DNA of 64,000 nt. It comes from Mucilaginibacter sp. Its GTDB lineage: Bacteria > Bacteroidota > Bacteroidia > Sphingobacteriales > Sphingobacteriaceae. This document shows, piece by piece, positions 4,908 to 38,630 of the stretch. Location: contig NZ_JBDSCA010000061.1 of the NCBI RefSeq assembly GCF_039921305.1, positions 11,153 to 75,152 of the forward strand, in the 5' to 3' direction. Numbering within the stretch: the stretch's first letter is position 1; the number at the start of each line of letters is the position of its first letter. Under the pieces are notes generated by a model. The model saw nothing but the letters and a program-made list of their open reading frames with translations, had not been told where the DNA came from and did no database searches. The translations under genes were made by a program, and so were the position numbers.

Positions 4908-4925
4908 TTACTTGCCGATACAGAA
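4908..4925 (-). mobile_element. att core: displaced copy of the mnmE 3' end (FCIGK-stop)
   Basis: Minus strand TTC TGT ATC GGC AAG TAA versus mnmE TTC TGT ATT GGC AAA TAG at 37224-37241. Confidence 0.8.
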
Positions 4926-5138
4926 AGTACTTATGTTGTGATTATCAGCAATAATCATATTTTGAGTAACAAATGGAGAACAAAAATTTTGACCTATTTT
5001 TAGGACAATTCTAACCGTTTGGGGTGTAGAAAACTTGCCTTTTAGATGCGTTTTACGAAAAAAAGAATATCTGCAACTTTCAAAAAGGGGTTTTAATAAG
5101 ACACTAAAAGGGATTAAATGTTGCAGCCGGAAGCTCCA

Positions 5139-5825
5139 TTATGTTGGATACCTGAATTCAAAGCCAGTGCCCCGGACAGTTTCCAGGCTGATGTTCGTAT
5201 CGGCAATTAAATACTTACGCAGTTTGCTGACAAAGACATCCAGGCTGCGGCCAGAGAAATAATCATCGCTCTTCCAGATATGCAGGAGCAGTTCATTGCG
5301 CTTGATCAGCCGGTCTCGGTTCGCGCAAAAATACAGTAGCAGCGTAGCCTCTTTTTCCGTCAGCCGGGTATAGCCCGTCTCATGGCGCAGCAGCAGGCTG
5401 GGATGGTCAAAGATATAGCTGCCGATGTGTAATAGTTCGGGAATTACCGTTTCAGGCGGCTCCGTGCGTTTTAAGATGTTCTTCAGCCGCAGGACCAGTT
5501 CTTCTACCTCGAAGGGCTTGACCACATAATCATCGGCACCCAGGCCGAGCCCTTTTAAGCGGTCTTCTTTCTGGTTGCGCGCGGTCAGGAAAATAAAAGG
5601 TATCCCCGGATGGGTCGCGGTGATCTTTTCGGCAAGCGTAAAACCATCCATTACCGGCATCATCACATCCAATACACAGATGTCCGCAGTGTCGGTTTTA
5701 AAAAAGGCCAGGGCATCTGCGCCGTTCGTTTTCCAGCTGACCCGGTAGCCTGCCAGTTCCAGGTATTGTTTGAGGATACCGCCAAAATCCGGATCATCTT
5801 CCGCTAACAGGATGTGTTTATTCAT
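5139..5825 (-). CDS. OmpR-family response regulator
   Basis: Receiver ILLAEDD, CVLDVMMPVMDG, FLTA, KPF; winged helix LTEKE..LL..IW..GRSLDVFVSKLRK..TVRGTGF. Confidence 0.95.
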   Translation of the reverse strand: MNKHILLAEDDPDFGGILKQYLELAGYRVSWKTNGADALAFFKTDTADICVLDVMMPVMDGFTLAEKITATHPGIPFIFLTARNQKEDRLKGLGLGADDYVVKPFEVEELVLRLKNILKRTEPPETVIPELLHIGSYIFDHPSLLLRHETGYTRLTEKEATLLLYFCANRDRLIKRNELLLHIWKSDDYFSGRSLDVFVSKLRKYLIADTNISLETVRGTGFEFRYPT

Positions 5826-7132
5826 CGGGGTAAAATTAAAGTAAAAGTACTTCCCTGCCCGGTGCCGCTTTGCAGCAGAATCTTCCCACCATGGGCCGTG
5901 ATGACCAGTTCACTGTAATAAAGGCCTAAGCCCAAGCCCTTGGTATTATGAATATCGCCCTTTTCAGCGCGGTAGAACTTTTCAAAGATCCGGGCCTGGT
6001 CAGATCCGGTGATACCTATACCATTATCCTTGATGGTGATGCCATAACTATCCGTATCTGCAACCGTGGTAACAATGATCTGCCCCCCGCCGTATTTGAC
6101 GGCATTGTCCAGGATATTGACAATGGCAGTGGTCAGGTGAAAGCGGTCGGCTTTAATTGCAGCTACCTGGCTATCCAATTCGGCCATCAGTTCGATCTGC
6201 GGGCTGCCCAGCTTAAAATCTTCCAGCATTTCGGCGATAAAGGCAGGCATATGGATCAGTTCCCGATGCAGCCGGAGCTGCTGTGGCCCGGCGGTATGCG
6301 AGATCACTTGCCCGATCAGTTTCCGGAGCCTTTGCTGCTGGCGGTCGATGGTGGCGACCGAGTTATCCAATATCGGGTCTGGCTGTCCGGCGAGCCTGTC
6401 TTTTACTGTGCTGAGGGCGACCCCCAGGGTAGCCAGCGGGGTGTTGAACTCATGGGTGATGTTATTGATAAAATCGGTCTGCATATCCGAAATCTTCTTT
6501 TGGGTGACCAGGCTCCTGATCGACAGGTAAAAAAGCAAAATGACCACGCCCAGCAGCAGCACCGAAAAAATCAGCAGGCCCAGCATTTCCCGGAGGATAC
6601 TATTTTCGCCCCCGTTTATCGCGAAGCCCGAGCGGGAGGTAAAGTTCCGGACGAGGCCGCCGCTGATATTGTTGTCCGTGGTCAGGTCATGGATAACCAG
6701 CTGTTCGCCATGCAGCTCACCACTGCCGAACCAGGGCCGATCGGTCAGGGTAACCCTCTGGCCGGAGGGGCTTTCCAACAGGACCTTGTTGATCACGACC
6801 TGGTAAACCGTGCGGTATTGGTGCAGTATCGGGTTGGTATTGATATATTGGGCTACCTTTCTGCTCAATACCGGAGCCCCGGAACTGAAAAAACTTTCGG
6901 CCGCGGTGATTCCCTGCGCGCGCAGCAGGGCGTTGCCATGCACAAACCAGCCATTCCGGACCGAATCGATATTGATCAGGTTCTCCATCCGGATCAGTTC
7001 CAGGCGTACCACGCTCTGCGCTTCTTTCTCTTTGAGGATATAGGTATTGTAAATAAAATAAGACTGGATCGCCGCCAGCGCCGTTATCGCCAGGCTGCAG
7101 CCCCAGATCAGGTATCTTATTTTGCGCTTCAT
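5822..7132 (-). CDS. Membrane sensor histidine kinase
   Basis: Two TM segments; H-box FINNITHEFNTPL, N-box NILDNAVKY, DNGIGI, FEKFYR, GLGLGL; 4-bp overlap with the regulator. Confidence 0.95.
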   Translation of the reverse strand: MKRKIRYLIWGCSLAITALAAIQSYFIYNTYILKEKEAQSVVRLELIRMENLINIDSVRNGWFVHGNALLRAQGITAAESFFSSGAPVLSRKVAQYINTNPILHQYRTVYQVVINKVLLESPSGQRVTLTDRPWFGSGELHGEQLVIHDLTTDNNISGGLVRNFTSRSGFAINGGENSILREMLGLLIFSVLLLGVVILLFYLSIRSLVTQKKISDMQTDFINNITHEFNTPLATLGVALSTVKDRLAGQPDPILDNSVATIDRQQQRLRKLIGQVISHTAGPQQLRLHRELIHMPAFIAEMLEDFKLGSPQIELMAELDSQVAAIKADRFHLTTAIVNILDNAVKYGGGQIIVTTVADTDSYGITIKDNGIGITGSDQARIFEKFYRAEKGDIHNTKGLGLGLYYSELVITAHGGKILLQSGTGQGSTFTLILPR

Positions 7133-7256
7133 GAATTCAAAGATAGCGAGGCCAGTTCATTTAAATGCAGGAAACGGCGGCATTAACATTCCGTTAACCA
7201 AGCATTAACCAAATCCCGTCTTTCGCTAACGGAAGTTTGCAGCAAATTAAAAGATC

Positions 7257-9644
7257 ATGCGCCAACTTATTAAAGTTCTTCTTTACGTTTTCCTCTTCAT
7301 GCCCATTGTCGGGTTCAGCCAGGCGATCCGCTTGTCCGGTCAGCTACAGCACGAAAAGCAACAGCCGGTCCCTTATGCCACCATTACCTTGAGGAATCAG
7401 CCGGATTCCCTGCTTTTTAAAAGCACCCTTGCCGACAAAGACGGTCGGTTCGCCTTCAGCGGAATCAGCAAAGGTAATTATCTTTTACAAGTGAGCGCTG
7501 TCGGTTTCCAGGCGCGGCAGCAAAAGGTTACGCTTTCCGGCGATGCCGTTTTACCGCCCATTATCCTGCAGGAGGAATTGACCCAACTTGGGGAGGTTAC
7601 GGTCGCAGCAAAAAGGCCCACGGTCACCCGGAAGATCGACCGCGTGGAATTTAACGTGGAAAATACCGCGCTGTCCTCCACCAATGCCTGGGAGATCGTT
7701 AAACGCGCTCCGGGGGTGCAGTCGGGCGGCGGAGAGCTGTCCATTCGGGGCAGCAAGGGTATCCTGGTTACCATCAACGATAAAAAAGTGTACCTGTCCG
7801 GCGATGAACTGAAAGCTTACCTCGAAGGCACTAATGGCGGGGATGTAAAATCGGTCGAGGTGATCACCAACCCACCTGCCAGGTATGAAGCCTCGGGCAG
7901 CGCGGTCATTAACATCAAGCTGAGAAAGAATACGAAGTCTGGTTATAAAGGCTCTGTCGGCGGGAGTTATGTACAGGGGATCTACGCGAAAGGAAATATC
8001 AGCACCAGCCAGTATTACAAAACGGAAAAGTTATCGCTTTCCGGCAGTTATACCTTTGGTAGCGGCGTATATTATAATGAGATCAAAGAAGTGACCCGTT
8101 TTACCGCCGGGCAGCAGACCTGGGAGGATGAATTAAAGCGGAAGAACTACCGCGATGCGGAACATACCTACCGTGCGGGTTTGGATTATGCCATCGACAG
8201 CCTTAATAGCCTTAGCCTGGGAACGGACGGCTATATCGCCCGGCAAAACCATGCACAGTACAATGTGCCTACCCGGATCTACGATCAGGATCATCAGTTA
8301 GTCTCCTATTTCGAGACACAGAACAACCGGCTGGCACCCAATAGTAATCATGCTTATAACCTGGGTTATGACCATTTATTCTCTGCCAAAGAAAAGATCA
8401 GCCTAGGGGCTGACTATACCAATTACCGCAGCGAAGCAGACCAGGATGTACGCACGGCCTATTATTTAGTTAACCCGCGCAATGCCCGTTTTACCACTGA
8501 TAACACCCAGCACATCCGCTTATTCAGTACACAGCTGGATTACAGCAAACAAAGCAAATTTTTTGATTTGGAAACGGGCTTTAAATACAGCCGGGTAAAA
8601 GCGGCTAACGGTGTAGCATTCAGCATGGATACCACGGGTGGGTTGGTCAATGATCCGGCGCTGAGCAATACCTTTGCCTATGATGAATCAGTCTCGGCGG
8701 CTTATCTGAGCCTGAACAAAGACCTGAAAAGCTGGAGCCTGAAGGCAGGACTAAGAGGGGAATATACAGCCATTAACAGCCATTCGGTAAGCCCCCCGGA
8801 GCTAAATAGCCAGCATTATTTCAACCTGTTCCCTACCTTGTTTATCCAGGATAAGTTGTCGCCGGATCATCAGCTGGGATTTTCTTATGGCAGACGGATC
8901 AGCCGCCCGCAATACAGGTACCTGAACCCGTCCAGGAGCTACTTTAGCCCCAATTCCTACCTGGTGGGCGATGCCCGGCTGAAACCGGCCACGACCGATC
9001 AGTTTAACCTGAATTATGATTACAAGGGAAATTATCATGCACAGCTGTACTACATCAGCGAGCGCAACCCGACAATACAGCTGCCTTTCCAGGATAATGC
9101 GACCAATACACTGATCCAAAAAGTAACCAATATTCCCGGCAACCATTATTACGGCATTGACCTGAGCACCAGTTTACAGCCCGCATCCTGGTGGTCTGTG
9201 GATGTGCAGGCCGGGCCGGGGCATGTGGAAAGTAGTTTCGGGCTCGCGGATGGTACTGTATTACATAACCGGGCTTTTACCGTCAGCGGCAGCCTGGACA
9301 ACCAGTTGACGGTCAATAAAAAAGCGGATTTTACGGCGGGCGTCAATTTCAGTTTCAACACTGCCGGTGTACAAGGCCCTGCCAAAGTAAGCGGTACGAG
9401 CAGCCTGGGTTTCAGCGCCCGGAAAAAACTATGGCAAAACCGTGCGGAGATCTCCCTGCTGGTATCGGATATCTACAGGGGTGAAAAGATGAAGGTCAGT
9501 TCGGACTATTCCGACCAGCACAATTATTTCACCTATTATGGTGACAGCCAGAACCTGCGCATCAGTTTTAAATACAACCTGGGCAATACCGGCCTAAAAG
9601 CAAAGGCAGCTAAAGAGAAAACGGAAGAACAAAACCGCTTATAA
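7257..9644 (+). CDS. Outer-membrane beta-barrel / TonB-dependent receptor family protein with N-terminal carboxypeptidase-regulatory-like domain
   Basis: Signal peptide, LGEVTVAAKRP, EVITNPPARYEASG..INIKL, GLRGEYT, LFPTLF, SYGRRISRP, C-terminal SFKYNLG; divergent from the two-component pair. Confidence 0.85.
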   Translation: MRQLIKVLLYVFLFMPIVGFSQAIRLSGQLQHEKQQPVPYATITLRNQPDSLLFKSTLADKDGRFAFSGISKGNYLLQVSAVGFQARQQKVTLSGDAVLPPIILQEELTQLGEVTVAAKRPTVTRKIDRVEFNVENTALSSTNAWEIVKRAPGVQSGGGELSIRGSKGILVTINDKKVYLSGDELKAYLEGTNGGDVKSVEVITNPPARYEASGSAVINIKLRKNTKSGYKGSVGGSYVQGIYAKGNISTSQYYKTEKLSLSGSYTFGSGVYYNEIKEVTRFTAGQQTWEDELKRKNYRDAEHTYRAGLDYAIDSLNSLSLGTDGYIARQNHAQYNVPTRIYDQDHQLVSYFETQNNRLAPNSNHAYNLGYDHLFSAKEKISLGADYTNYRSEADQDVRTAYYLVNPRNARFTTDNTQHIRLFSTQLDYSKQSKFFDLETGFKYSRVKAANGVAFSMDTTGGLVNDPALSNTFAYDESVSAAYLSLNKDLKSWSLKAGLRGEYTAINSHSVSPPELNSQHYFNLFPTLFIQDKLSPDHQLGFSYGRRISRPQYRYLNPSRSYFSPNSYLVGDARLKPATTDQFNLNYDYKGNYHAQLYYISERNPTIQLPFQDNATNTLIQKVTNIPGNHYYGIDLSTSLQPASWWSVDVQAGPGHVESSFGLADGTVLHNRAFTVSGSLDNQLTVNKKADFTAGVNFSFNTAGVQGPAKVSGTSSLGFSARKKLWQNRAEISLLVSDIYRGEKMKVSSDYSDQHNYFTYYGDSQNLRISFKYNLGNTGLKAKAAKEKTEEQNRL

Positions 9645-9663
9645 CAGGATACTGAACGCGCAA

Positions 9664-9849
9664 CTACCTGCTGGCTTTCAGCCGTTCCGCGAGTTCCCGG
9701 GTCTGCGCGTTCGGCACCAGCAAATACGCACGTTCCGCCCATTTTCGCGCATCTTTCCGGCCGGGGTCGCCCGGCGGCAGTACTTCGGCAAAAGCCTCAG
9801 CGACGTTGTACAGGGTGGCGGCAGGTTGCCCTGAGTATTCCGCCAACAT
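9664..9849 (-). pseudogene. Orphan 3' fragment of a helical (TPR-like) protein gene
   Basis: TLYNVAEAFAEVLPPGD..KDARKWAERAYLLVPN..ELAERLK reads like a C-terminal helical repeat; its 5' end runs straight into the truncated hydrolase on the opposite strand at about 9845. Confidence 0.45.
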
Positions 9850-10513
9850 TGTTATCGTTCACGGCGCTTTTGCCGATGCCTCTGGTTGGGAAGCGGTGTA
9901 CAATATCCTGAAAAAGGATGGTTACCATGTTACGCTTGTGCAAAACCCACTCAGCTCATTGGAAGACGATGTTTCCGCTACGAGCCGGGCATTAGATAAG
10001 CAGGATGGTCCGGCAATCCTTGTAGGGCATTCCTGGGGAGGGGCGGTGATTACGCAAGCCGGTGTTTCGGAAAAGGTTGTGGGTTTAGTTTATATGGCAG
10101 CCTTTATACCTGACCAAGGAGAAACCGTTATTTCTTTGCTGCAATCGGGACCGCCATTGCCGGTAAACGGGATTTTGCCGCCAGACGAAAAGGGAATGAT
10201 TTATTTTGACAAGGCGAAATTCAGGGAATGCTTCGCCGCCGAACAAAGCGAAAACAAGGCAAATTTCATGGCTGATTCTCAGCAACCTATTACAGTTAAA
10301 TCATTTTTAACTCCATTAACAGAAGCGGCCTGAAAGAGCAAACCCTCATACGCTATCGTAGCAACTGAAGACAAAAGTATCAATCCATCGCTTGAACGAA
10401 CTATGTATAGGCGTGCTGGAGCCATAGTTACCGAACTCAAAGGAAGCCACACTTTATATATGTCGCAGGCGAAAGCTTTAGCTGATGTGATCGAATCTGC
10501 AGCACGAAAATAA
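9845..10513 (+). pseudogene. Alpha/beta hydrolase (Abhydrolase_6-like), 5'-truncated, with an internal TGA
   Basis: NIVIVHGAFADASGW, nucleophile elbow GHSWGG; TGA at 10331-10333 is followed in frame by KSKPSYAIVATEDKSINPSLERTMY..KGSHTLYMSQ..RK-TAA (10513), which carries the remaining catalytic Asp and His. Confidence 0.85.
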
Positions 10514-10670
10514 TAACAGACAGCAGCGTCGGCATTATTAATTGCAAATACGACTCTAAAATATTGCTGGCGCTGACTTTCTTAAATGTAACCGGTCAGT
10601 TAACACTCACCCCAAGAAAATTACCACATAGATATCCGTTGTTGTTTCTCCCTAAATTGTAGTGTTTTGT

Positions 10671-10720
10671 GTGCCATTTAGTATCATTTAGTGCCATTTA
10701 GTTACCGATAGTTACAACGA
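10671..10720. repeat. Five phased 10-bp repeat units
   Basis: gtgccattta gtatcattta gtgccattta gttaccgata gttacaacga; TAGT recurs at 10679, 10689, 10699 and 10709. Confidence 0.75.
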
Positions 10721-10890
10721 TTTATAAGCAACTGAAAAATGAAGGAACAAAAGACAATTTGAGAACCAAAAAAGTAACAGAATTACTTTCCAATAGTAAC
10801 AAAAAGCACAAATATACCGATTGGTTTTATTTACAAAGACCTGATATTATGATATTTATGGAAAAAGATGCAGGTTTTTACGTTTTGTTT

Positions 10891-10935
10891 TAAATTGATA
10901 ACTAATTGATTATAAATCAGTTAGTTATCAATTTA
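10891..10935. repeat. 21-bp inverted repeat abutting the att core
   Basis: TAAATTGATAACTAATTGATT-ata-AATCAGTTAGTTATCAATTTA, one mismatch; a second inverted repeat at 10950-10983 flanks the other side of the core. Confidence 0.8.
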
Positions 10936-10950
10936 TTTGCCGATACAAAA
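10933..10950 (-). mobile_element. att core: displaced copy of the mnmE 3' end (FCIGK-stop)
   Basis: Minus strand TTT TGT ATC GGC AAA TAA. Confidence 0.82.
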
Positions 10951-11320
10951 AGTAACTAACTACTGATTATCAATTAGTTACTTAGTTTCAGTACCAAGAC
11001 AGTAACAAAAAATATTGACCTGATTTTAGGTCGTTTTCTAATAGGGAAATGTGGATAACCACCCTACTAATTAAAGAAAAACTCACAATAATTTTAAGAG
11101 AGAAAGCTAAATTTTGATCGCTAATAGACAATCAATTACCGGACTTGGAAATTTCGGCAGCCTTGACCAGACCATTCCGTGTGCTTTATTGCACTGGTTT
11201 GTGTTAGAGGTTTAGGTGATCGTAATTACTGGTCAACGAATTAACATGGTCAAAGTGTTACGGGATTGTATGTTCGTTGTTTCGGAATAAGGTGATCCAT
11301 GGCCCGGAATATCTACTACA

Positions 11321-11485
11321 GGGATGGATCAAGCCCTTTTGCTTACCTCAGACAAAGGAATATAGACCGATTGTGGTTTCGACATCAAGCAACATTTCCT
11401 TTTTGACCAGGCCGACCGTGTAACTCCGGACAAAATTGAAAACTGGACAACAGCCATCATTAATTCATTTTCAAATCATAATTAA
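11321..11485 (+). pseudogene. 3' fragment of a flavodoxin-fold NAD(P)H-dependent oxidoreductase
   Basis: Hand translation GMDQALLLTSDKGI*TDCGFDIKQHFLFDQADRVTPDKIENWTTAIINSFSNHN* with an in-frame TAG at 11363-11365; resembles the C-terminus of this family (from recall, not searched). Confidence 0.5.
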
Positions 11486-11594
11486 TTCAACAAATATATA
11501 TGAAAAAGTTCCTCTTAAGTGTTATTTCGGTGGCTGTATTAACTACGCTTACCGTTGGGGCATTAGAAACTTTTATATACCGGTTAAAAACGAT

Positions 11595-11874
11595 CTACCT
11601 ATCCAAGGACATATCAAGAAGAAACCCCAGAATTAATGCCTTTCCTTTTTGCCTACTTGCCTTATTGATAGAGATCTTTGCTGTTTAATTGTAAAATATC
11701 TTTCGTGCTTTTTACACCGTAAAATTTCAATCCATTTTTTACTTGTGGTAGGAAAATTTCTATCTGATCAATGGAAAAATGTTTTTTAAGCTGACACTTT
11801 TGTTGCAGCATTTGAAAAAGTAACGCTTCACTTTTCCGGGAAAGAATCTGAATATTGTATGATTTAGCCTCCAT
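11595..11874 (-). pseudogene. Possible frameshifted RNA polymerase alpha-CTD-like (HhH) small protein
   Basis: LPQVKNGLKFYGVKSTKDILQLNSKDL continues after a frameshift as LSIRQVGKK, matching the alpha-CTD pattern N.L..G..T..DL....DLL.I...GKK. Confidence 0.35.
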
Positions 11875-11963
11875 TGTTAAAACGGTTTAATACTTTAAAA
11901 TGATTCCTTATGAACGGTGCGCCAATTGATCGATAGAAGTTACGGCATTACTTCCCTTAACCA

Positions 11964-13637: not shown

Positions 13638-13695
13638 TAGTTTAATTTAGTTATTAGGTTTATCATCGGTTAAAATATATTGTTGCTGGCCTTTA

Positions 13696-20997: not shown

Positions 20998-22395
20998 TCA
21001 TTTTAAAAAAACCTCAATAACCGGCATTTCAGAAACGGGCCTTTGTACTGGCAAATGAAGTATTACATCATTACTTGCAGCTGTTTCGGTAGTGTGGCTA
21101 CCCGGTTTTATTTCTTCGTCAAAGCTAATTTCTGAACCATCTTGTAACAGTTGGGCAAATTTGATTTTGCCCTTATAATTCGGTAAATGCAAAGATTTAA
21201 ATGGCCACTCGATGATATGAATATATAACCTATTCAATTGCGGGTTATAGGTCAAAAAGCAGTTATCCGGTTTAGTAAATTCTTTAGGGGCCTGGGTACA
21301 TCCGTAAATTGCGCGGTTGTTATATTTCATCCAATTACCAATAGCTGCCAAACGTTCAATAGCCCGGCTATCAAACTCACCACGTGCTGTAGGACCCACA
21401 TTTAACAACAGGTTACCACCTTTGCTCACCGTTTCAACCAACATTGATACCAACTGATGCGCACTTTTCCAGGAATATTCATCACGATTATATCCCCACG
21501 AACCGGAAAAAGTCTGGCATGTCTCCCAAGGTACTTTCAGCCCGTTAAGCGTTGGCCACTCGACCGGCATAAACTGCTCCGGAGTTTTATAATCCCAGCC
21601 CCAATCTGTTTGACTTAGATCCAACCTGTCGTTCACGATGATCTGGGGCTGCAGCTTTCTAATCATCTTGAGTAGATTGGATGCATCCCAATCTTTGGCA
21701 CCCTTTCCGTTAGTACCCGGATAAGAATAATCTAGAAATAGTTCGTCAATTTTTCCGTACTGGGTTAGCAGTTCCGTTAACTGATCACGTAAATATTGGC
21801 GGTACTTACTCATATCGCGATTGCTGTTTAGAGCCAAAGCAGACTTATCTTCGCGAAGGGGGTGTAACTGGTCAATGGTAAAATCCGGATGGTGCCAATC
21901 GATCAATGAGTAATAAAACCCAATGCGTAATCCTTCCGCGCGACAAGCATCAACCAACTGTTTTAAAAGATCTCTTCTTGCAGGCGTATTCGTCGCCCTG
22001 TAATCGGTAACCTTACTATCCCACAAACAAAAACCCTCGTGGTGTTTTGTAGTGATTACAATATATTTCATTCCGGCGGCCTTGGCCTGTTTTGCCCATT
22101 GTACCGGATCGTATAAGTCAGGGTTAAAGGCATCAAAATACTTATTATAGTCTTTATCCGATATCATTTCCCTGCTCTTTACCCATTCATGCCGGGCGGG
22201 TACTGAATATAGCCCCCAATGAATAAACAAGCCGAAACGTGCATCCCGCCACCATTCCATTCGTTTATCCTTTTGCTCAAGGGTTTCCGTCGCCCATGTC
22301 GGACGAGTTTCTGCCTGTCCTATCACCTTCGGCTTAAAAGAGATAAGTAAGAGCATAAAACAAAGTAATTTCCTTTTCATGATGATATCTATCAC
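20998..22395 (-). CDS. GH29 alpha-L-fucosidase
   Basis: WWRDARFGLFIHWGLYS, FNPDLYDP..WA..AGMKY..TTKHHEGFCLWD, LFLD nucleophile region, PWETCQT..SWGY, NLLLNVGP. Confidence 0.93.
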   Translation of the reverse strand: MIDIIMKRKLLCFMLLLISFKPKVIGQAETRPTWATETLEQKDKRMEWWRDARFGLFIHWGLYSVPARHEWVKSREMISDKDYNKYFDAFNPDLYDPVQWAKQAKAAGMKYIVITTKHHEGFCLWDSKVTDYRATNTPARRDLLKQLVDACRAEGLRIGFYYSLIDWHHPDFTIDQLHPLREDKSALALNSNRDMSKYRQYLRDQLTELLTQYGKIDELFLDYSYPGTNGKGAKDWDASNLLKMIRKLQPQIIVNDRLDLSQTDWGWDYKTPEQFMPVEWPTLNGLKVPWETCQTFSGSWGYNRDEYSWKSAHQLVSMLVETVSKGGNLLLNVGPTARGEFDSRAIERLAAIGNWMKYNNRAIYGCTQAPKEFTKPDNCFLTYNPQLNRLYIHIIEWPFKSLHLPNYKGKIKFAQLLQDGSEISFDEEIKPGSHTTETAASNDVILHLPVQRPVSEMPVIEVFLK

Positions 22396-23675
22396 TTTAT
22401 TGTTTGTATCGCTTCGTGCATCGTTTCTCTTTGTATCTTATTAACTAAAGTTGACGCGATACCGATCTGCTTTTGCGCATCGGTGTAGTTGGAATGTATA
22501 TGGCTCACCATATTAGCAATTTGAGAAGCCGGTGTCTCATCTATCTCAAATATCCAATCATTAAGGCCAATATCCCTCCACATCTGTCCTTTCCTCGTGT
22601 CTGTAGGTTGTTTTAAATATATTGCCGGTACTTTCTCAGTGAACGCAATTATGGGTGAATGCATTTCATAGCTGATCAGCACCCTTGCTTTGGCATATAT
22701 AGAACGTGCTTCGTCAGGCAACCAAAACGAATCCCGCCATACCACATTTTTTTTTATCTCATCTGGCAACGGGTCAACCAAAACTTCTTTTGATAAGGCA
22801 ACTTGTTGGGTAACTTCCGCACATGCCAAAACTTTTAGGCCTGTATCTTTTACCCATTTTATCATCACCTCGCGTAGTTTGGCCGCATCTATTTCTTTGT
22901 GTTGTAGCGAAATGGCATACTTTCTCTTTTCTTCTACGGTTGGCTCAACACCACGCATCTGCCAGTATGGGGTATATCGTAACCTGGGTATCACGCAAAT
23001 AAATTTACCTCTTTTTAAACCATTAGCGGTTAAGTAAGCTTCGGCCTTTTGTTCATTTTGTAATTTGAGGGCAAAAGTTGCATCCAGGCCTAATTGCTGT
23101 ATCGGGCATTTCAAATTGAGCGAACGTAAATATTTTAACGATTCAGAATCTCTGCAGAAAAAGAACGAAGCATGATCTATCAATTCTTTTAAGGGCTCAT
23201 CTACCTCGTCAAGCGAAACGCCATATACTCCAAATGGTTTTTTGGTATTGTTCCACCAGGCCCTTACATCTTTATAAGCAGCTACATATGGGCCCGAACC
23301 ATGAACCATTAGGTCACATTCGGCAAATGCTTTTTGCAGATCCGTGGTCGCCGGTTTGCCAGAATCATCCAGCCGGCCTTGTATAATATTTAACTTAGGG
23401 AACGATCTCCTCATTAATGCATCTACTTCCACGTCAACGCTAACAGGCCATAATATAATTTCAGCTTCTGGCAAATAGATGTTAAACAATTCGATCAGAC
23501 CGAAGCTATGGCTAATGTCGCCAATGTTAACTACCTGCCATGATGAGCGCAATAATATTTTCGGTTTCTTTTGTGAACCCTTTCCCATAGCTATTGCATT
23601 AATAACAGGCATCATTACAGATGCGGCTGTCAGAAAACCTGTTTGTTTTAAAAAGTCCCTTCGTTGTTGATCCAT
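22392..23675 (-). CDS. Polysaccharide pyruvyl transferase family protein with a twin-arginine signal
   Basis: QRRDFLKQ Tat-like N-terminus; NIGDISH, VHGSGP, FFFCRDSESL, DATF, MHSPIIA motifs typical of the family. Confidence 0.78.
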   Translation of the reverse strand: MDQQRRDFLKQTGFLTAASVMMPVINAIAMGKGSQKKPKILLRSSWQVVNIGDISHSFGLIELFNIYLPEAEIILWPVSVDVEVDALMRRSFPKLNIIQGRLDDSGKPATTDLQKAFAECDLMVHGSGPYVAAYKDVRAWWNNTKKPFGVYGVSLDEVDEPLKELIDHASFFFCRDSESLKYLRSLNLKCPIQQLGLDATFALKLQNEQKAEAYLTANGLKRGKFICVIPRLRYTPYWQMRGVEPTVEEKRKYAISLQHKEIDAAKLREVMIKWVKDTGLKVLACAEVTQQVALSKEVLVDPLPDEIKKNVVWRDSFWLPDEARSIYAKARVLISYEMHSPIIAFTEKVPAIYLKQPTDTRKGQMWRDIGLNDWIFEIDETPASQIANMVSHIHSNYTDAQKQIGIASTLVNKIQRETMHEAIQTIK

Positions 23676-27686: not shown

Positions 27687-29528
27687 TTAATAGCCCGGAT
27701 TTTGAACCAAAGCTTTGTTTAAAGACATTTCATGAATAGGTATCGGAAAATAAATATTGCGCGAAGAAAGCCTTGTCGCCGGTGTGGTGATAACCGTTGC
27801 CGTTCCTCCGTTTGCTGAAGCGTAAGCTAAAAAGTCTTTGATATCACCAACATAATTCCCCCACCTGATCAAATCGTTGCGCCTAAAGGCCTCGAAACAT
27901 AATTCTCTTAAACGCTCGTCTTTAATGGCCTGGCGTAAACTTTCCTTACTAGCGGTCTGTGTTGCAGAAAGATCGGCATCTGTAGATTTAGATATGGTTG
28001 CCGTGGCAGCGGCACCTGTGCCTGCTGTTGCGGTAAATGTTATAGTTGGAGCCGAAGTATAATACGGCCCTGCAACTGTCAATGTTCCCGGATTAATGAT
28101 ACTGATACTTGTTATCTTTCCGGCCGCCACGGTAGCGGTGGCAGTAGCGCCGGAACCTCCTCCGCCAACGATATTTACGGTTGGAGCTGTTGTGTATCCC
28201 GAACCCGCATTAGTGATCGCAATATTGCGAACTACGTTACCATATAAGATGCCGTACCCTCGCTGTCTTACCTGGTTTACGAACGGATAAGCTTTGGTAG
28301 GCCCGTTTAATTCATTCTCGGCCTCGGCCATCATAAGTAAAATGTCAGAATACCTAATTACAGCGTAATTTTCATTGGTATAGTTCTTATCCTTGGTGGC
28401 TGTTGTTTCATATTCTCTCCTCCATTTACCGCTATTCATGATCCATGTGTTGGTAACCGGTGTGTAAGTAGCAGTTGTCGTTTCACTCCAGGTGTAATTA
28501 GCGCAATTCCAATCTCTCCTTATGTCGAACGATGTTTTGTTTGGCGATGCTGTGTTTAAGGTATTCAACTCATATGCATCGTATAATTTTTTTGTCGCGT
28601 TTAAATACCCGGCGCTAAAGCCTTTGGTTTCGTCAACACAACGGATACCACAATAGCGGCCGGTATAGGTAGTCCCCAGGTTTTTACCTGATACCAATCC
28701 TTCAAATTCAATTTCGAATAAATTTTCTTTAATATCATATTTATCCTGCGCGTAGTTGATAAATACCTGTTTATAATCAGGATTTAAAGCATGCTCTTTA
28801 GTATCGATAATTTTTTGGCACCATGATATAACCTCCGGATAACGGGATACATCATATAGAGGAAAACCAGCCATATAAAGATTTACACGGGCAAGTAAGC
28901 CCATTACCGCTGTGTGATTAGCCTTACCACTATAGCCTAAAGAAGTAATAGTTTGAGTTTTCAATAAGGTTTCGGCAGATGTGAGATCGTTAATAATTTG
29001 CAGATATACCTGTTTCATTGGGGCACGTGCTATATTAACATCAGTTATCGAGCCTGTGGGATCGATAACAAGCGGCACATCGCCATAGTTGCTCACCAGC
29101 ATAAAATAAAAGTAAGACCTTAAAAACAATGTTTCTCCCCTGATCACATCCTTTTGTGATTGTGTTGCGGTTACGCCGTCAATACTTGCAAGTAATAAGT
29201 TAGCATTACCTATCCCGGCATACATTTGCTGCCAAAAATTAGAAACATTTACGTTTTCGGCTCCAAACAAGAAAGATGGAGTATCCTCAGTTGCCCTGCC
29301 GTAAGACTCATCGCTATTTGTATTAAAGTTATAGAGATAATTATTACCGAACGCGCCAATATTCCCCATAGTGGCGTATACGCCAATTAAGGCGTTTTGT
29401 AGCTGGTAGGGAGTTTTATAATAAGCGGCCGGCGTGATAAAATCAGTTGGGTTGGTATCAAGCATTTTGTTGCACGCTGTTGCGGTTAAAATCAGCGTTG
29501 TTAAAAGAGTGTATTTTAATATTTTCAT
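27687..29528 (-). CDS. susD: SusD/RagB-family lipoprotein with a Gly/Thr-rich insertion
   Basis: Lipobox TAC; GETLFLRSYFYF.LV..YGDVP, IRYSDILLMMAEA.NE, ERLRELCFEAFRRNDLIRWG, FPIP..QNPGY. Confidence 0.93.
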   Translation of the reverse strand: MKILKYTLLTTLILTATACNKMLDTNPTDFITPAAYYKTPYQLQNALIGVYATMGNIGAFGNNYLYNFNTNSDESYGRATEDTPSFLFGAENVNVSNFWQQMYAGIGNANLLLASIDGVTATQSQKDVIRGETLFLRSYFYFMLVSNYGDVPLVIDPTGSITDVNIARAPMKQVYLQIINDLTSAETLLKTQTITSLGYSGKANHTAVMGLLARVNLYMAGFPLYDVSRYPEVISWCQKIIDTKEHALNPDYKQVFINYAQDKYDIKENLFEIEFEGLVSGKNLGTTYTGRYCGIRCVDETKGFSAGYLNATKKLYDAYELNTLNTASPNKTSFDIRRDWNCANYTWSETTTATYTPVTNTWIMNSGKWRREYETTATKDKNYTNENYAVIRYSDILLMMAEAENELNGPTKAYPFVNQVRQRGYGILYGNVVRNIAITNAGSGYTTAPTVNIVGGGGSGATATATVAAGKITSISIINPGTLTVAGPYYTSAPTITFTATAGTGAAATATISKSTDADLSATQTASKESLRQAIKDERLRELCFEAFRRNDLIRWGNYVGDIKDFLAYASANGGTATVITTPATRLSSRNIYFPIPIHEMSLNKALVQNPGY

Positions 29529-29539: not shown

Positions 29540-32500
29540 TTAAAATGATACGTTCAATCCGAATACGATAGTTTTGGCTCTTGGATACGCGGAAAAATCG
29601 TAGCCCGGTGTTAATGTTGAATTCCTGTTGGATACTTCAGGGTCTGGACCTGTATATTTTGTCCATGTATATAAATTTTGAGCCGATGCGTAAATTCTCA
29701 GGCTTTTGATACTCACTTTTGCTAATATTTTTGTCGGGATAGTGTAACCTAATGACAGCGTTTTTAATCGTAAGTATGAGCCATCTTCTACTACCCTGCT
29801 CGAATAATTAATTAGGCCTTGGCCACCTGCTCTGAATAGGGTATTGCTTGGATTATCAGGCTCCCAACGATCTGCATAACTTGCAAATTGATTTAAGTAT
29901 TTTGCGCCTTTTGCATTTCCTTCAAACAATAATCGATTGGCATTAATGATATCGTTTCCGTATGACCATTGGAAAAGAATATTCAGATCAAAGCCATTAT
30001 AGGTGAAGTTATTCGTAAAACCGCCTACACTAATAGGCAAGCCTCTGCCGATCACCGTGAAGTCCTTAGCGTCTATCACCCCGTCGCCATTGATATCCCT
30101 GTATTTGATAGAGCCCGGCTGCGTTGATGTTCCGTTATTGGGTATACCATTTTTCAGCACATATTTGCCTTGTGGTGTAACATCAAAGTCGCTGTATTGA
30201 TAAACCCCATCCCATATCAATCCATACATTTGCCCTACGGGTTGGCCCACTGTAGCAATATAAGCCGGCAGTGTATTTAATTTCAAGTCGACATTAACAG
30301 TTGATAACAGAGATTGTTGATTTTCAGTTAAAGCAATTACCTGATTTCGATTAAAACTGATATTGAAATTTGAACCCCATGTAAATGTTTTGTTGTGAAC
30401 ATTTACAGTATTTAGTGTAAACTCAAGACCTTGATTTCTGATACTGCCAATATTTTTAAATGCCTGTGATAAACCCGTTGTGTAAGGCAGCTGGGCATTT
30501 AACAATAGGTCGCGTGTTGTTTTAGAATACAGATCGACGGTGATGTCTATCCTGCTGTTGAACAGGCTTAGGTCATATCCCAAATTCGTTTGGATAGCCG
30601 TTTCCCATTTTAGATCTGGGTTTCCGTAAGCGGTAACAACAGCGCCATTTAAGGGAATAGAGTTATTAAACGAATAGAGTACCGAGGCCGGCAAGTTGAT
30701 CTGCGATAGGTACGCAAAGTCCGACACCCTGTTATTTCCCGTTTGACCGTAACTAAACCGAAGTTTTGAATCGGAGATAAAGGTTAAGCCTTGCATAAAC
30801 TTTTCGTTGCTCATTCGCCATGCCACTGAAGCCGACGGGAAATACCCCCATTTTTTTCCACTGGCAAACTTTGATGAACCATCAGCACGAAAGGATGCCG
30901 TAAACAGGTATTTTGATCTGTAGCTGTAAGTTGCTCTGCTCAAAAAAGACATCAGCGCCCATCTGGAACTCAACGAAACAGGCGTTATGGCCGTTGATTG
31001 ATCTAAACCATCTATTCCCAGAGATTCGTTTGGGACTAATATGGCACCGAAACCATAATTTTCGGATGTGTTACCTTGCTGGCTAAATCCACCTAATATG
31101 GTAATATCGTGATCTTTGTTAAAAGTGTTTTTATAGGTTATGGTATTTTCGTTAAGCCACGTGGAGTTATTAGCATTATAAATTGATCCGTTTACACCCG
31201 TTGATGTATTTAATTTATTTCCCCTGGCGGTTAATGAATTATAAAAGGATTCCACTTTACTATCATTTGTTGTAATACCTCCTGTTACTCTTAGCGTAAA
31301 ATGAGGAACCAACAGATATTCTAAATAACCATTTGCCTGTAAGCTTTTTACTATGGTTTGGCGTAGTTGATTTTGCGCGTCTATTATAGGGTTAACCCTA
31401 TAATCAGATGTGGTAACGGCGTCGAATCCAGGGTCAAAGAGTTGATCTTGAAGATCAAGGTCGTTATCTGATGATCCGCCCGAAACCGGTCGCCACCCCC
31501 ATACGGCATATAAAAGATTAGTACTTGCAGAAGAAATGGTTGAAGGGTCTGATGCTACCAGGCCGTTATAGCTACTTTTGCTGTAGTTAATATTCGCGCC
31601 GACCTTAAGTTTTTTATTCACATTTTGATCAAGGGTAAACCTACCTTGAGCACGATTAAAACCTGAGTTTATAATTATACCATCCTGATCTATGATTCCG
31701 CCTGAAATGGAATACTTTGTTTTATCATTACCACCCCGAATAGATATCGTATGGTTTTGCATGGGAGCAGTACGGTACAATTGCTTTTGCAGATCTATAC
31801 CATTGATGTTTTTGTAATCATCTAACGTACGCCCGTTCAGATAGATCGACGCCGCGGCCGGATCATAATCAAGTTGGTAACGCACAAATTCATACGCGCT
31901 CATTAATGGTATGGTTTTGCTGTTTTTCTGTAAGCCATAATATCCATTATAATTGATAACCGGATCGCCTTTACCGCCGCGTTTCGTTGTAATTACGATA
32001 ACGCCGTTAGCTCCTCTGGCACCATAAATAGCGGTGGCCGACGCATCTTTAAGAACGTCGATAGATTCGATATCTGCCGGATTTATTGAATTGGGATCAG
32101 CATTTTCAACCGGGAACCCATCTATGATATACAGCGGAGATATATCTTGTGTTATTGATCCGGCACCACGGATCGTAATATTAGAATTAGACCCCGGTTG
32201 CCCATCATTCCCAGCAACTTGTACACCTGCCGCTCGTCCCGCCAAAGCTTCATCGAATGATTTTATAGGAGCCTTTTCAAAACTTTTCATATCTACCGAG
32301 GCGATAGCACTGGTTAACTCTTTTTTAGTGGTTTGACCATAACCGATCACAACTATTTCGTTTAAGTTCTTAGCTGATTCCTTGAGCTGCACATTAATAC
32401 TGTTTTTATTTGCTATCGGCACTTCGATAGGCGAATAACCTATAAAACTAAATATTAAGGTTCCGCTGAGATTTGGAACAGTAATTTTATAGCCTCCATC

Positions 32501-32755
32501 CTGATCTGAAGATGCGGAAATATCGCTGTTTTTAAGTTTGACGGTTACCCCTGGCAGTGATGAACCATTGACCGCGTCAGTGACTTTCCCTGTGATTACC
32601 ACAGATGCTTTTACTTTAGCTTGAAAGATACCGCCAAAAGAGCTGGTTGATATTGTACAGAAAAAGATCAGAAGCGTGCTCATTGATCGCAGCCGAACAC
32701 GATATAACCACGGATAGTAATTTGTTTGGGTTAGTAAAGTAATAGGTATACTCAT
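29540..32755 (-). CDS. susC: SusC/RagA-family TonB-dependent transporter
   Basis: [73 protein letters not shown]. Confidence 0.96.
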   Translation of the reverse strand: [1071 protein letters not shown]

Positions 32756-32795
32756 ATAGTTGGTTTATTTATTGGTTATCAAGAACAAAGTGAGT

Positions 32796-35333: not shown

Positions 35334-35382
35334 TAAACCTTTAATTTAATAGCTATTCCTCAAAGAAAGTCTATTAATTAAA

Positions 35383-35403
35383 TCTGGTCTGGTTTAGTCT
35401 GGT
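35383..35403. promoter_or_regulatory. Candidate operator (TCTGG pentamer array)
   Basis: TCTGG TCTGG TTTAG TCTGG T upstream of GH3. Confidence 0.6.
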
Positions 35404-35500
35404 TTATACTTACAATGATATGGCGTTTATTTTAGATTTCAAAATTTATTTATTCAGTATGCCGATTTATTTTTTTCGCTTCACATCATATGGGTTAAAA

Positions 35501-35515
35501 TCTGGTTTGGTCTGG
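35501..35515. promoter_or_regulatory. Candidate operator TCTGGTTTGGTCTGG upstream of gntR
   Basis: Identical to 16008-16022. Confidence 0.62.
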
Positions 35516-35566
35516 AATACTATGCGAAAAATTCTTACTTTGCAAGCACTTACTGATTAAATTCCC

Positions 35567-36592
35567 GTGAAAAAAAGCAACGAAACTTCGACTGATCTGC
35601 CTAATATTAATCATCGCATGAAATATCTGCAGTTAGTTGAGCATGTGAACAGCCTGATAGAAAACGATAAATTACAGATCAACGATCGTCTTCCTTCACT
35701 CAATGAGCTCACAAGTCAATTAAAAATGAGTAAAGAAACAGCCTTAAAGGGTCTCAATTACCTCTCTGAAAAAGGTATTATTGAGGCCGAATACCGCAAA
35801 GGCTATTACGTAAAAAAGAAAGCACAGTATCGTCCCTACCGGGTTTGTTTAATACTTGATAAGATGAATGTCCTGAGAGATAGGATCTACCATTCCTTTT
35901 TAGAAGTCATAAAAGACCAAGCGGATGTTGATGTATATTTCCACCATCATAATTTTAAAGTATTTGAAAAATTGATCGATGAGAACCTGAATAATTATAC
36001 CCACTTTGTGGTCATCACCTTTTTCAGAGAAGATCCGGCAGAGATCTTAAACCATATCCCTCCTCATAAAAGAATTATTTTAGACTTTGAAGAAAAGAAT
36101 TTGACGGGCGACTATACATGTATATATCAAGATTACAGATCAGATATTATAGATAAACTGACCGAACTACAACCAAGATTAGATAAATACGATCGTCTTA
36201 TATTAGTAGCTCCTTTGGAAGCTTTCCATGCTAAAGCCGTTATTGAGGGATTTGAAACATTTGCCAAAAAATACTCCAAAATTTATAAGGTTATTAACGC
36301 CTTAGATGAAGCACAAGCTAAAAAGGGAGATGCTTATATTACTTTCAGCAGATACGACCAGGACGATGTTTCGATTATAAAGCTAAGTCGAAAAAACAAT
36401 TGGCAGTTAGGCAAGGACATTGGTTTGCTTTCGTACAATGATACAGCAGTTAAAGAGGTTCTGGAAAATGGAATTACTGTTATTACTACAGACTTTAATA
36501 AGATGGGGGAAGAAGCAGGCAGAGCAATTATAAATAAGGAAATCATAAAGATGCGTGACCCGGCCAAAGTGATCTTAAGAAATTCATTATAA
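35567..36592 (+). CDS. GntR-family regulator with a C-terminal periplasmic-binding-fold sugar sensor
   Basis: KYLQL..DRLPSLNEL..MSKETALK.L..L..GII....KGYYV wHTH; C-terminal IGLLSYNDT..ITVITTDF..MGEEA; divergent from the PUL. Confidence 0.9.
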   Translation: MKKSNETSTDLPNINHRMKYLQLVEHVNSLIENDKLQINDRLPSLNELTSQLKMSKETALKGLNYLSEKGIIEAEYRKGYYVKKKAQYRPYRVCLILDKMNVLRDRIYHSFLEVIKDQADVDVYFHHHNFKVFEKLIDENLNNYTHFVVITFFREDPAEILNHIPPHKRIILDFEEKNLTGDYTCIYQDYRSDIIDKLTELQPRLDKYDRLILVAPLEAFHAKAVIEGFETFAKKYSKIYKVINALDEAQAKKGDAYITFSRYDQDDVSIIKLSRKNNWQLGKDIGLLSYNDTAVKEVLENGITVITTDFNKMGEEAGRAIINKEIIKMRDPAKVILRNSL

Positions 36593-36595
36593 TTA

Positions 36596-36728
36596 AACCG
36601 GATACTGATCCGTCAATGGTAGCACGGGTCGCACCGTTTATCGCGCCAGTTTGCTCATCCTGTAACAGGCCGATGATCTCCCAGTCATGAGCATTAAAAC
36701 CAGCAGGCATTACGATCTGCTGAGTGCC
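36596..36728 (-). pseudogene. 3' fragment of a probable DUF1223-type thioredoxin-like gene
   Basis: Hand translation [36 protein letters not shown]; resembles DUF1223 C-termini (recall, not searched); no 5' part. Confidence 0.45.
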
Positions 36729-36822
36729 TTAAGCTACTGCAAAACCTCGTAACGGTGGTTTTTGCTACAAATACGTTTCCGCATTGTTCACATAATCGGT
36801 TTACTGTGAAATTTGAACTCAT
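36694..36822 (-). pseudogene. 5' fragment of an excisionase-like HTH gene of Bacteroidetes integrative elements
   Basis: [30 protein letters not shown] (CxxC..C zinc motif), then out-of-family sequence and a stop after 42 aa; sits next to the att arm. Confidence 0.7.
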
Positions 36823-36985
36823 AAATAATCTCAATCAAAAATATAATCAGCGAAATTTTGGCAAAGCAATTCCCTGCGATAATATCTCCACTTTTAAAAT
36901 ACTAAATATCAGATTATTACACCACTCTGGGAAGATAACCACCGATGTCTTAACCCGGCATCATCAGTCGTAATTGCCCCGAATT

Positions 36986-37040
36986 TAAGCCATTCTAAGC
37001 ACATCTAAGGCTTAATAAGCGTAAATAAGGGTTTATAAGT
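36986..37040. repeat. Six TAAG motifs at exact 10-bp spacing
   Basis: gaattTAAGc cattcTAAGc acatcTAAGg cttaaTAAGc gtaaaTAAGg gtttaTAAGt. Confidence 0.8.
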
Positions 37041-37223
37041 GACTTAATTTTCCCCCAAAATCTTGATCGCAAAAAAAATCATTTTTGAGTAACAACTTAG
37101 TACCAAATATAAGAAATACAATGCCAATTATCCAAGAATTTGGACAAGCGAATAATTATAACTTACTAACAATGAACTATTTAATTGTAGTAAATTGTCG
37201 TTAGTTTTGGGTATTTGTCGGCA

Positions 37224-38630
37224 CTATTTGCCAATACAGAACTTAGAAAATATATTATCGAGCAAATCATCAGTAGTAACGGCTCCGGTGATCTCGCCTA
37301 AGTAGTAGAGGGATTGTTTGATATCCATGGCCAGAAAATCGGAGGTTACGGGGTGTTCTATTCCGTTGAGGACGCGGATTAGGGCTTGCTCTGTTTTTTG
37401 GAGGGCTTCGAGGTGGCGAATATTGGTTACCAGGGTTTCGTTGCCAGTGAGTTGGCCCTGTACGGAGCTGTTGTATATGGTTTGTTTCAGTTCATCAATG
37501 TGCTGCTTTTCGCGAGCGGATACGGTGATGAGCTTTACATCTTCGGGCAGATTAAAACTGGCGGCGAGCTTACTATCTGCTAACAGATCTATTTTGTTGG
37601 CTATGGCTATGATGGGGATGCCTGGGTGAATCAGGTTTTTCAGGTCTTGGGCTACGTCTTCGCCAGTCATGGTTTCTGCATCGAATACATACAGTAGTAA
37701 CGCGCTTTGGCTGATCTTTTCGAGGGTTTTTTGTACGCCTATGGCTTCGATAGTATCGGTGGCTTCACGTAGTCCGGCTGTATCTACTAAACGGAAATTT
37801 ATTCCGTTGATGTTGAGGATCTCTTCGATAGTATCACGTGTTGTACCTGCTATGTGACTTACAATGGCACGATCTTCATTTAACAATGCATTGAGCAGAG
37901 TGGATTTACCGGCGTTTGGCCGCCCGGCTATTACTGTGTTTACACCTTGTTTTATAGCATTACCCAATTCAAAAGATTGGATGAGTTTGCTTATCATGTT
38001 ACTGATATCAACTACCAGTTGCTTTAATTGTATGCGGTTGGCAAACTCTACATCTTCTTCCGAAAAATCGAGTTCTAACTCAATTAATGATGCAAAGGTT
38101 ACCAGTTGATCACGCAGTTGTTGTAGCTGATTGCTATAGCCGCCACGTAATTGCTGCATGGCTACCTGTTGCGATGCTTTTGAGTTTGAGGCTATCAAAT
38201 CGGCAACGGCTTCGGCCTGACTTAGATCAAGCTGACCGTTGACAAACGCGCGTAGTGTGAACTCACCGGGTTTGGCTGAGCGTGCCCCTTGTTTGATAAA
38301 AAGCTTGATGATAGACTCCATAATGTATGCCGAGCCATGGCAGGATACTTCGACCACGTTTTCGCGGGTGTACGAGCGTGGGGCTATGAATACGGATGCC
38401 AATACTTCGTCTAACACAATGCCCTCACCAACTATATTACCGAAGTGAATAGTATGGGATGCCTGTTTCTCCAGATCTTTACCTTTAAAAACACTGTTGG
38501 CTATCGCGATGGCATCCGGACCGGAAAGCCTGATAACGCCAATGGCTCCTATGCCGTTTGGCGTGGCCAGGGCAACAATGGTATCTTCCTTTTGAGAGAT
38601 TTGAGATTTTAGATTTGAGATTTGAGACAT
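37224..38630 (-). CDS. mnmE: tRNA modification GTPase MnmE (TrmE)
   Basis: ATPNGIGAIGVIRLSG, GEFTLRAF.NG.LDL.QAEA, GRPNAGKSTLLN, GTTRD, DTAG, NKID, terminal FCIGK. Confidence 0.98.
   Translation of the reverse strand: MSQISNLKSQISQKEDTIVALATPNGIGAIGVIRLSGPDAIAIANSVFKGKDLEKQASHTIHFGNIVGEGIVLDEVLASVFIAPRSYTRENVVEVSCHGSAYIMESIIKLFIKQGARSAKPGEFTLRAFVNGQLDLSQAEAVADLIASNSKASQQVAMQQLRGGYSNQLQQLRDQLVTFASLIELELDFSEEDVEFANRIQLKQLVVDISNMISKLIQSFELGNAIKQGVNTVIAGRPNAGKSTLLNALLNEDRAIVSHIAGTTRDTIEEILNINGINFRLVDTAGLREATDTIEAIGVQKTLEKISQSALLLYVFDAETMTGEDVAQDLKNLIHPGIPIIAIANKIDLLADSKLAASFNLPEDVKLITVSAREKQHIDELKQTIYNSSVQGQLTGNETLVTNIRHLEALQKTEQALIRVLNGIEHPVTSDFLAMDIKQSLYYLGEITGAVTTDDLLDNIFSKFCIGK

Follow-up and report, generated by a model that had tools for sequence, protein, structure and literature searches.

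We analyzed a 64,000-nt stretch of a Mucilaginibacter sp. genome (contig NZ_JBDSCA010000061.1 of assembly GCF_039921305.1; hereafter, the window) that contains the gene mnmE, also named trmE. We found that the DNA downstream of mnmE is best explained as a tandem array of two genomic islands, both without an integrase, that is inserted at the 3' end of the gene within its final 18 bp. We put the probability of this explanation at about 85%. The initial annotation of the window had proposed at least two stacked integrations (~26 kb and ~6 kb) at the 3' end of mnmE. That proposal is upheld by the homology of the island arms to those of related elements, the architecture of the distal arms, the loss of synteny at the mnmE stop codon, and the foreign composition of the smaller island.

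Cores at the mnmE end and related integrase-bearing elements

The last 18 nt of the live mnmE gene encode the residues FCIGK and the stop codon. Two synonymous copies lie further left in the window on the same strand, and we refer to the three 18-mers as core 1 (the gene end itself), core 2, and core 3 (Table 1). Direct reading and a pattern search confirmed all three at the positions given in the initial annotation. We found that a degenerate pattern for FCIGK-stop matched exactly 3 times in the window, against 0.00 matches expected from 100 shuffles. Across the whole genome (5.66 Mb), the pattern returned the same three matches only, all on one strand of one contig and within 32 kb. The annotation had suggested looking for additional FCIGK-stop 18-mers in the genome, and there were none; its other concern, that such 18-mers might be as frequent in random DNA, is contradicted by the counts. 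A contig-wide fuzzy search in core orientation (up to 4 mismatches) also found no further core-like sites. Against these numbers, the idea that the three 18-mers are a chance coincidence has virtually no probability, and nothing speaks in its favor.

We found that cores 1 to 3 vary solely at core positions 3, 9, 15, and 18; each of these is either a codon wobble position or the last base of the stop codon. The annotated claim that all differences fall at third codon positions was therefore correct. It is plausible that attP cores of this kind are under protein-level selection; the core set was gathered with a pattern that demands FCIGK-stop and so provides no independent test of this.

The MnmE protein of the window is 76 to 78% identical in amino acid sequence to Mucilaginibacter MnmE proteins, which marks the host as a Mucilaginibacter-like bacterium within the Sphingobacteriaceae. 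The closest MnmE that we saw, at 85% identity, was that of genome G807. An exact-protein look-up found no identical MnmE in other assemblies.

To place the cores in context, we used 80 mnmE loci of related genomes and carried out a whole-genome core search in 20 of these genomes. A second FCIGK-stop core was present within 10 kb in 4 of the 80 loci. One of them is locus L075 from Pedobacter sp. BS3, in which the cores are separated by 7.4 kb that encode an HTH_17 protein, a tyrosine integrase (domains Arm-DNA-bind_5, Phage_int_SAM_5, and Phage_integrase), a D5_N/DUF5906 primase-helicase, and a DUF6371 protein. Of the 80 loci, 20 had a homologue of this integrase (38 to 50% identity) downstream of mnmE and with the same orientation, at a distance of 0.3 to 1.3 kb, and an HTH_17 gene often preceded it. 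The search of the 20 genomes yielded ten pairs of cores on the same contig and strand, 7.4 to 34.9 kb apart, with the integrase on the mnmE-proximal side in each. In these 10 intact elements, as in the window, the bounds are direct repeats of the FCIGK-stop core, and the proximal repeat is the live gene end. One intact element of 32.2 kb, in Pedobacter sp. PLR, carries ECF (extracytoplasmic function) sigma factor, FecR, SusC, SusD, GH95, and GH88 genes together with a second SusC/SusD polysaccharide utilization locus (PUL). Because the intact elements span 7.4 to 34.9 kb and one of them holds PULs, the two islands of the window, with sizes of 6 and 26 kb and a PUL as cargo, fit the range of this family.

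Stacked or partial elements also occur in related genomes. In G807, mnmE is followed by a core, an HTH_17 gene and an integrase (28.6 kb in total), a second core, a 3.1-kb segment with HTH_17-like, SDR, and AraC genes and no integrase, and a third core. Mucilaginibacter gossypiicola (G008) has an intact element of 18.9 kb; behind it lie a proximal arm like that of island B, the smaller island of the window, and an HTH_17 fragment without an integrase. In genome G029, a core has a distal arm upstream and HTH_17 and integrase genes downstream, with no mnmE within 10 kb. We conclude that the 3' end of mnmE is a heavily used integration site in this lineage.

Other elements at this site held further gene content. 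The intact mnmE island of locus L023 (genome G016) encodes an OLD-family ATPase/TOPRIM protein and then a UvrD-type helicase (L091:8099-11540), a Gabija-like defense pair, as well as a Phage_CRI-type Rep protein and five tandem paralogous genes of ~130 aa each. In a Pedobacter metagenome-assembled genome (L079:13518-13670), the distal copy retains a longer true mnmE coding stretch, ADDLLENIFSKFCIGK-stop. This copy brackets a 2.3-kb insert with one 546-aa open reading frame (ORF) that has no Pfam match.

We propose that circular Bacteroidota elements carry an attP site whose core copies the FCIGK-stop end of mnmE. A tyrosine integrase of the Arm-DNA-bind_5, SAM_5, and Phage_integrase type, encoded behind the proximal arm and usually after an HTH_17 Xis-like gene, would recombine attP with the gene end. 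A coding-equivalent mnmE end would thereby be kept, and a second core would mark the distal end of the island. If this happened twice, the result would be the order mnmE, core 1, island A, core 2, island B, core 3. Either island may have integrated first, since the predicted set of three hybrid cores is identical in both cases. Later internal deletions would have taken the HTH_17 and integrase modules, from ~36730 in island A and from the HTH_17 start near 10600 in island B. We infer from the anatomy of the junctions that recombination of this kind took place. The two cores of an intact element agree at positions 4 to 11 (TGTATYGG) and differ at position 12 in 8 of 10 cases, and the crossover therefore probably lies inside TGTATYGG.

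Attachment arms and synteny

Each island has an arm on the mnmE side (proximal) and one on the far side (distal), and we compared these arms with those of the related elements. The proximal arm of island A (~510 nt) shares 72.5 to 73% pairwise identity with the arms of the HTH_17- and integrase-bearing elements at L012 (Mucilaginibacter sp. MD40) and L004, and the mean column identity of the three-way alignment is 81%. This arm runs into a remnant of the first gene of the element, which by tblastn is 93.5% identical over 31 aa to the HTH_17 proteins of L012 and L004 (E value, 1.7e-14). The DNA alignment to L012 and L004 breaks near 36730, the same point where the HTH_17 protein homology ends. 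The break is a deletion scar left by the loss of the integrase module, and the deletion begins inside HTH_17 codon ~31. The proximal arm of island B is 82.6% identical to the arm of the element at L014 (Mucilaginibacter sp. UR6-11). Here the homology ends near 10600, where HTH_17 starts in the intact element of L014. By comparison, mnmE coding sequences are 70 to 71% identical between species. Arm conservation is thus at least equal to that of mnmE, which is compatible with either retained function or more recent common ancestry.

We observed two short ORFs at the break in island A. A chimeric 46-aa ORF (36694-36834, minus strand) joins the first 31 HTH_17 codons to unrelated sequence, and a 55-aa ORF beside it (36543-36710), without a Pfam match, may be the tail of the fused-in gene.

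The two distal arms of the window (~110 nt each) have ~95 nt of collinear blocks in common, among them the block TTGACCT..TTTAGG. We found the same architecture in both of these arms and in 10 of 10 intact distal junctions. The triplet ACT, preceded by A, T, or C, abuts the core; TGATAATCA lies ~21 nt from the core (10965-10973 in island A and 4939-4947 in island B); and paired direct repeats of the TTTGTWAC type, 11 bp apart, lie 40 to 60 nt from the core. In island A, these are TTGTTACT/TTGGTACT at 10990-11008, and in island B, TTGTTACT is at 4965-4972. The proximal arms hold repeats as well. In island A, the direct repeats TTGGTACT/TTGTTACT are paired at 37088-37106, again 11 bp apart, and a palindrome, TCCAAATTCTTGGA, at 37131-37144 is also found in elements of genomes G005 and G006. 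In island B, TGTTACT repeats are present at 10773-10779 and 10795-10802.

We then counted these repeats. The motif TTGKTACT occurs 13 times in the 64 kb; 6 of these occurrences, each on the core strand, are no more than 170 bp away from a core, and pairs spaced 11 bp apart are found at 10990/11001 and 37088/37099. A loose regular expression for the paired repeats had 7 matches in the genome, 2 of them in this array. Since the integrases of the family carry an arm-binding domain, it is a reasonable inference that the repeats may serve as arm-type integrase sites. The distal signature of TACT plus core was present in 21 of 121 genus genomes, and it occurred twice only in this genome and G807.

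Arms like those of island A, both proximal and distal, are found on one contig of genome G034, where they bound 119 kb behind mnmE. Because both arm types bound this one stretch, the data suggest that the two arm types of island A are a matched pair of ends. In the same stretch (G034:C3:67573-186811; loci L134 and L135), two FCIGK-stop cores are 119 kb apart and the integrase is seemingly truncated (157 aa matched). It represents either a very large element or an unresolved array.

The copies of the mnmE end could instead have arisen by local duplication or gene conversion, or could be a regulatory or terminator repeat, with no site-specific recombination. The copies are indeed short, and there is no local recombinase. 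However, their flanks are not mnmE sequence. These flanks share homology with att arms that belong to integrase-bearing elements of other species, and the same core pairs bound the 10 intact elements. We therefore give this alternative almost no credence.

Synteny also changes at the gene end. Genes upstream of mnmE (window positions 40.7 to 50 kb) are syntenic in 25 to 30 relatives, with 77 to 86% amino acid identity. Synteny with relatives ends exactly at the mnmE stop codon, and nothing downstream is common. The initial annotation had named colinearity of close relatives across the cores as evidence against integration; among 40 relatives, we found none that was colinear across the core 2 junction (10933), where only arm-sized matches were seen. 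It had further held that integration explains all the accessory DNA left of mnmE. This holds for 4926-37223. It does not hold for the DNA left of 4908, where the contig has no synteny with relatives to support native status. At L007, L011, L022, and L025, mnmE is followed by ECF sigma factor, FecR, and SusC genes, and we considered these loci as the ancestral empty site. We rejected this candidate, as reciprocal searches showed that the clusters are not orthologous to window positions 1-4234.

Island contents and loss of the integrase

Table 1 Features of the window at and downstream of mnmE
Feature	Coordinates	Strand	Description or basis
Live mnmE	37224-38630	-	468 aa, full length; Pfam TrmE_N, MMR_HSR1, MnmE_helical
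Core 1	37224-37241	-	TTCTGTATTGGCAAATAG; last 18 nt of live mnmE; attL-type junction
Island A	10951-37223		26.3 kb, between cores 1 and 2; holds PUL
Island A proximal arm	36715-37223	-	Homology to arms of HTH_17- and integrase-bearing elements in L012 and L004
HTH_17/zinc-ribbon Xis-like gene remnant	36730-36822	-	31 codons of the first gene of the element; tblastn
Island A cargo (PUL)	11964-36592		Pfam; mostly a long minus-strand run
Island A distal arm	10951-11060	-	TACT next to core 2; homologous arms in G034, G027, G028, and G037
Core 2	10933-10950	-	TTTTGTATCGGCAAATAA; attP-like; joins island A distal arm to island B proximal arm
Island B	4926-10932		6.0 kb, between cores 2 and 3
Island B proximal arm	10600-10932	-	~335 nt homologous to arm of element in L014
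Island B cargo	5139-10513		Four genes; Pfam
Alpha/beta-hydrolase pseudogene	9806-10513	+	In-frame stop at 10331-10333
OMP_b-brl_3 outer-membrane barrel	7257-9644	+	Pfam
Histidine kinase	5822-7132	-	Pfam
OmpR-type response regulator	5139-5825	-	Pfam
Island B distal arm	4926-5035	-	TACT next to core 3
Core 3	4908-4925	-	TTCTGTATCGGCAAGTAA; attR-type junction
Flank beyond array	1-4234	-	ECF sigma factor, FecR anti-sigma, STN-SusC transducer; Pfam

We found that island B is compositionally foreign. Its genes have GC contents of 0.48 to 0.57, against a genome mean of 0.416 (standard deviation, 0.03), and fewer than 0.6% of 2-kb windows in the genome reach 0.50. The best relative of its barrel protein is 47% identical and comes from another family; within its own family, identity is at most 31%. 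The in-frame stop that breaks its hydrolase gene shows that island B has decayed. The hydrolase reading region (9656-10516, plus strand) contains this single stop, followed by 59 in-frame codons that encode a typical C terminus with a GSH motif, and it looks like a recent nonsense pseudogene. We also observed a near-perfect hairpin at 10891-10935, with 21-nt arms (95% complementary) and a 3-nt loop, which begins within the stop codon of core 2. From its sequence, it looks like a terminator or insulator that the proximal arm of island B may have brought in.

The cargo of island A includes genes for a GntR regulator, SusC, SusD, a DUF5017 protein, and an SSF symporter. Its enzymes are GH3, GH88, a heparinase II/III-like lyase, a GH29 fucosidase, a GDSL esterase, and an FAD oxidoreductase. 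It also encodes a pyruvyl-transferase-family protein and a beta-helix protein sorted by the type IX secretion system (T9SS). SusC (29540-32755) is next to SusD (27687-29528) and is accompanied by carbohydrate-active enzymes and a regulator, which identifies the cargo as a PUL. The closest syntenic PUL is in another genus and away from mnmE (fucosidase, 72%; SusC, 57%). The 32.2-kb Pedobacter element also holds PULs, and we infer that this PUL probably arrived as element cargo.

The polysaccharide pyruvyl-transferase-family gene (22392-23675, minus strand) is of note as it lies within a degradative PUL. This marker is rare in the genus (1 other sampled genome), and it is found with the same PUL neighbors in G105, which belongs to another genus.

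Several observations weigh against the two-island explanation. We detected no integrase, excisionase, or replication genes in either island by Pfam or homology. Because the islands are now without an integrase, the evidence for delivery by one is confined to the anatomy of the junctions. We found no empty-site orthologue among relatives, although the initial annotation had pointed to alignment with such a site as a check. The GC content of the PUL (0.38 to 0.41) is native-like, PUL homologues in other genomes sit away from mnmE, and the PUL of island A was not found inside an intact element or at mnmE in other genomes. Finally, the HTH_17 remnant runs at ~36730 into the tail of a gene that is unrelated to it, and for this reason the interior of island A could be a postintegration replacement.

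The GC content, the homologues away from mnmE, and the fusion at ~36730 also fit an alternative. In it, the arms and cores are genuine att scars, left by small elements such as the 7-kb one of L075. The large gene blocks, above all the PUL, would not have travelled on those elements but would have taken the place of their interiors at a later time, through homologous recombination or through deletion and fusion. The site is in addition a zone of general flux, as the flanks are non-orthologous in all relatives, which fits this alternative too. In contrast, the GC-rich block fills island B between its arms almost exactly, intact elements reach 35 kb, and an intact family member has PULs as cargo. 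We also saw no transposase, further repeats, or other mobility signature at the edges of the blocks. We consider later entry of the gene blocks improbable and favor delivery of both islands, with their cargo, by integration at the mnmE end.

We searched for the missing integrase beyond the islands. The initial annotation had suggested that one might lie left of the window, and there is none on the whole contig. A tblastn search of the window with all proteins of 23 related element regions returned only the HTH_17 remnant, next to arm-level DNA similarity. Elsewhere in the genome, 12 tyrosine-integrase homologues were candidates for a helper, and we rejected them, as they form a long-branched clade separate from the mnmE-site integrases. 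No integrase of the mnmE-site family was found anywhere in the genome. Both islands are therefore decayed derivatives and not autonomous members of the family. Because the genome is without a family integrase, the islands should be fixed here unless a related element arrives.

Relation to known mobile elements and minor observations

Elements related to Salmonella genomic island 1 (SGI1) of the Gammaproteobacteria target the last 18 bp of trmE, and the literature on them bears out the initial annotation, which had described the ends of trmE as hotspots for integration in other phyla (PMC9035990). The attL and attR sites of the trmE islands are imperfect 18-bp copies, one site serves several island families, and two-island tandem arrays occur (PMC9035990). 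The islands of the window thus resemble SGI1-related elements in target, in imperfect 18-bp att sites, in a hotspot used by multiple families, and in tandem arrays. They differ in several respects. The window family is in a different phylum, and its integrase is of a Bacteroidota type (Arm-DNA-bind_5, SAM_5, and Phage_integrase), as judged by Pfam architecture and not by direct integrase comparison. In the window, its cargo consists of a PUL and a two-component system in place of resistance integrons, and the window copies are without an integrase. The SGI1 family has gammaproteobacterial hosts and depends on a helper plasmid of the IncA/C type, and its backbone consists of int, xis, mobilization genes, and AcaCD-binding sites (PMC9035990, PMC6414798). 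None of these backbone genes appeared in the Pfam annotation of the window and related intact elements. Because phylum, backbone, and (by Pfam) integrase type differ, we did not file the window islands under the SGI1 family. Our literature search brought up the work on SGI1 in Gammaproteobacteria but no account of islands that target mnmE in Bacteroidota; it was too limited to call the family undescribed.

A second comparison is with cis-mobilizable elements (CIMEs). CIMEs and site-specific accretion were reportedly described by Pavlovic et al. in 2004 and Bellanger et al. in 2011 for ICESt1 and ICESt3 at the 3' end of fda in Streptococcus thermophilus. Mobilization of CIMEs by a helper element has been demonstrated. 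Like CIMEs, the window islands have att sites on both sides, have lost recombination and transfer genes, and stand in tandem behind a housekeeping gene, a likeness that for the window is one of anatomy. The integrase family and host phylum are unrelated to those of CIMEs. Because the arms are conserved at least as well as mnmE and keep all their repeats, an incoming element of the family could excise island A, island B, or both together. The two islands may thus be CIME-type cassettes, mobilizable in cis or trans, rather than dead scars, and the same 18-bp target may have been adopted in two phyla by unrelated integrases, each independently. On the sequence evidence, we hold this combined view to be doubtful. 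If true, a complete 26-kb PUL would be movable between soil Bacteroidota, and the mnmE end would act as an integron-like exchange platform for glycan degradation loci.

PULs on mobile elements are known from Bacteroides, in which porphyran and agarose PULs are carried on integrative and conjugative elements (ICEs), large conjugative elements that are commonly found at tRNA genes. Like island A, these ICEs hold a complete SusC/SusD-based PUL inside an integrase-type island. Unlike them, the elements described here target mnmE, have no conjugation genes, and carry replication modules of the D5-primase or Rep type.

The tandem array is in itself a fairly ordinary genome scar and reveals no new mechanism. 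It accounts for 32 kb of accessory DNA in this genome. The 18-bp mnmE target known from gammaproteobacterial SGI1 is also a busy landing site in the Sphingobacteriaceae, with an integrase in about a quarter of the sampled related loci. That elements at this site carry whole PULs or defense genes points to a concrete and testable route of PUL exchange in soil Bacteroidota. In addition, the att architecture (core, paired arm repeats, and palindromes) could be used for automatic annotation of such islands.

We made two further observations in noncoding parts of the window. An Rfam scan of the whole window returned no matches, and this includes a ~170-nt sequence (11145-11316) in the 950-bp noncoding gap between the distal arm of island A and the SSF gene. 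Weaker copies of this sequence are present elsewhere in the genome (C65:35814-35982 and C22:71328-71445), and several copies occur in other genus genomes at 67 to 74% identity. Possible readings are a small repeat element and a leader sequence. An AT-rich stretch with a GC content of 0.21 lies at 4301-4600, between core 3 and the ECF sigma factor gene.

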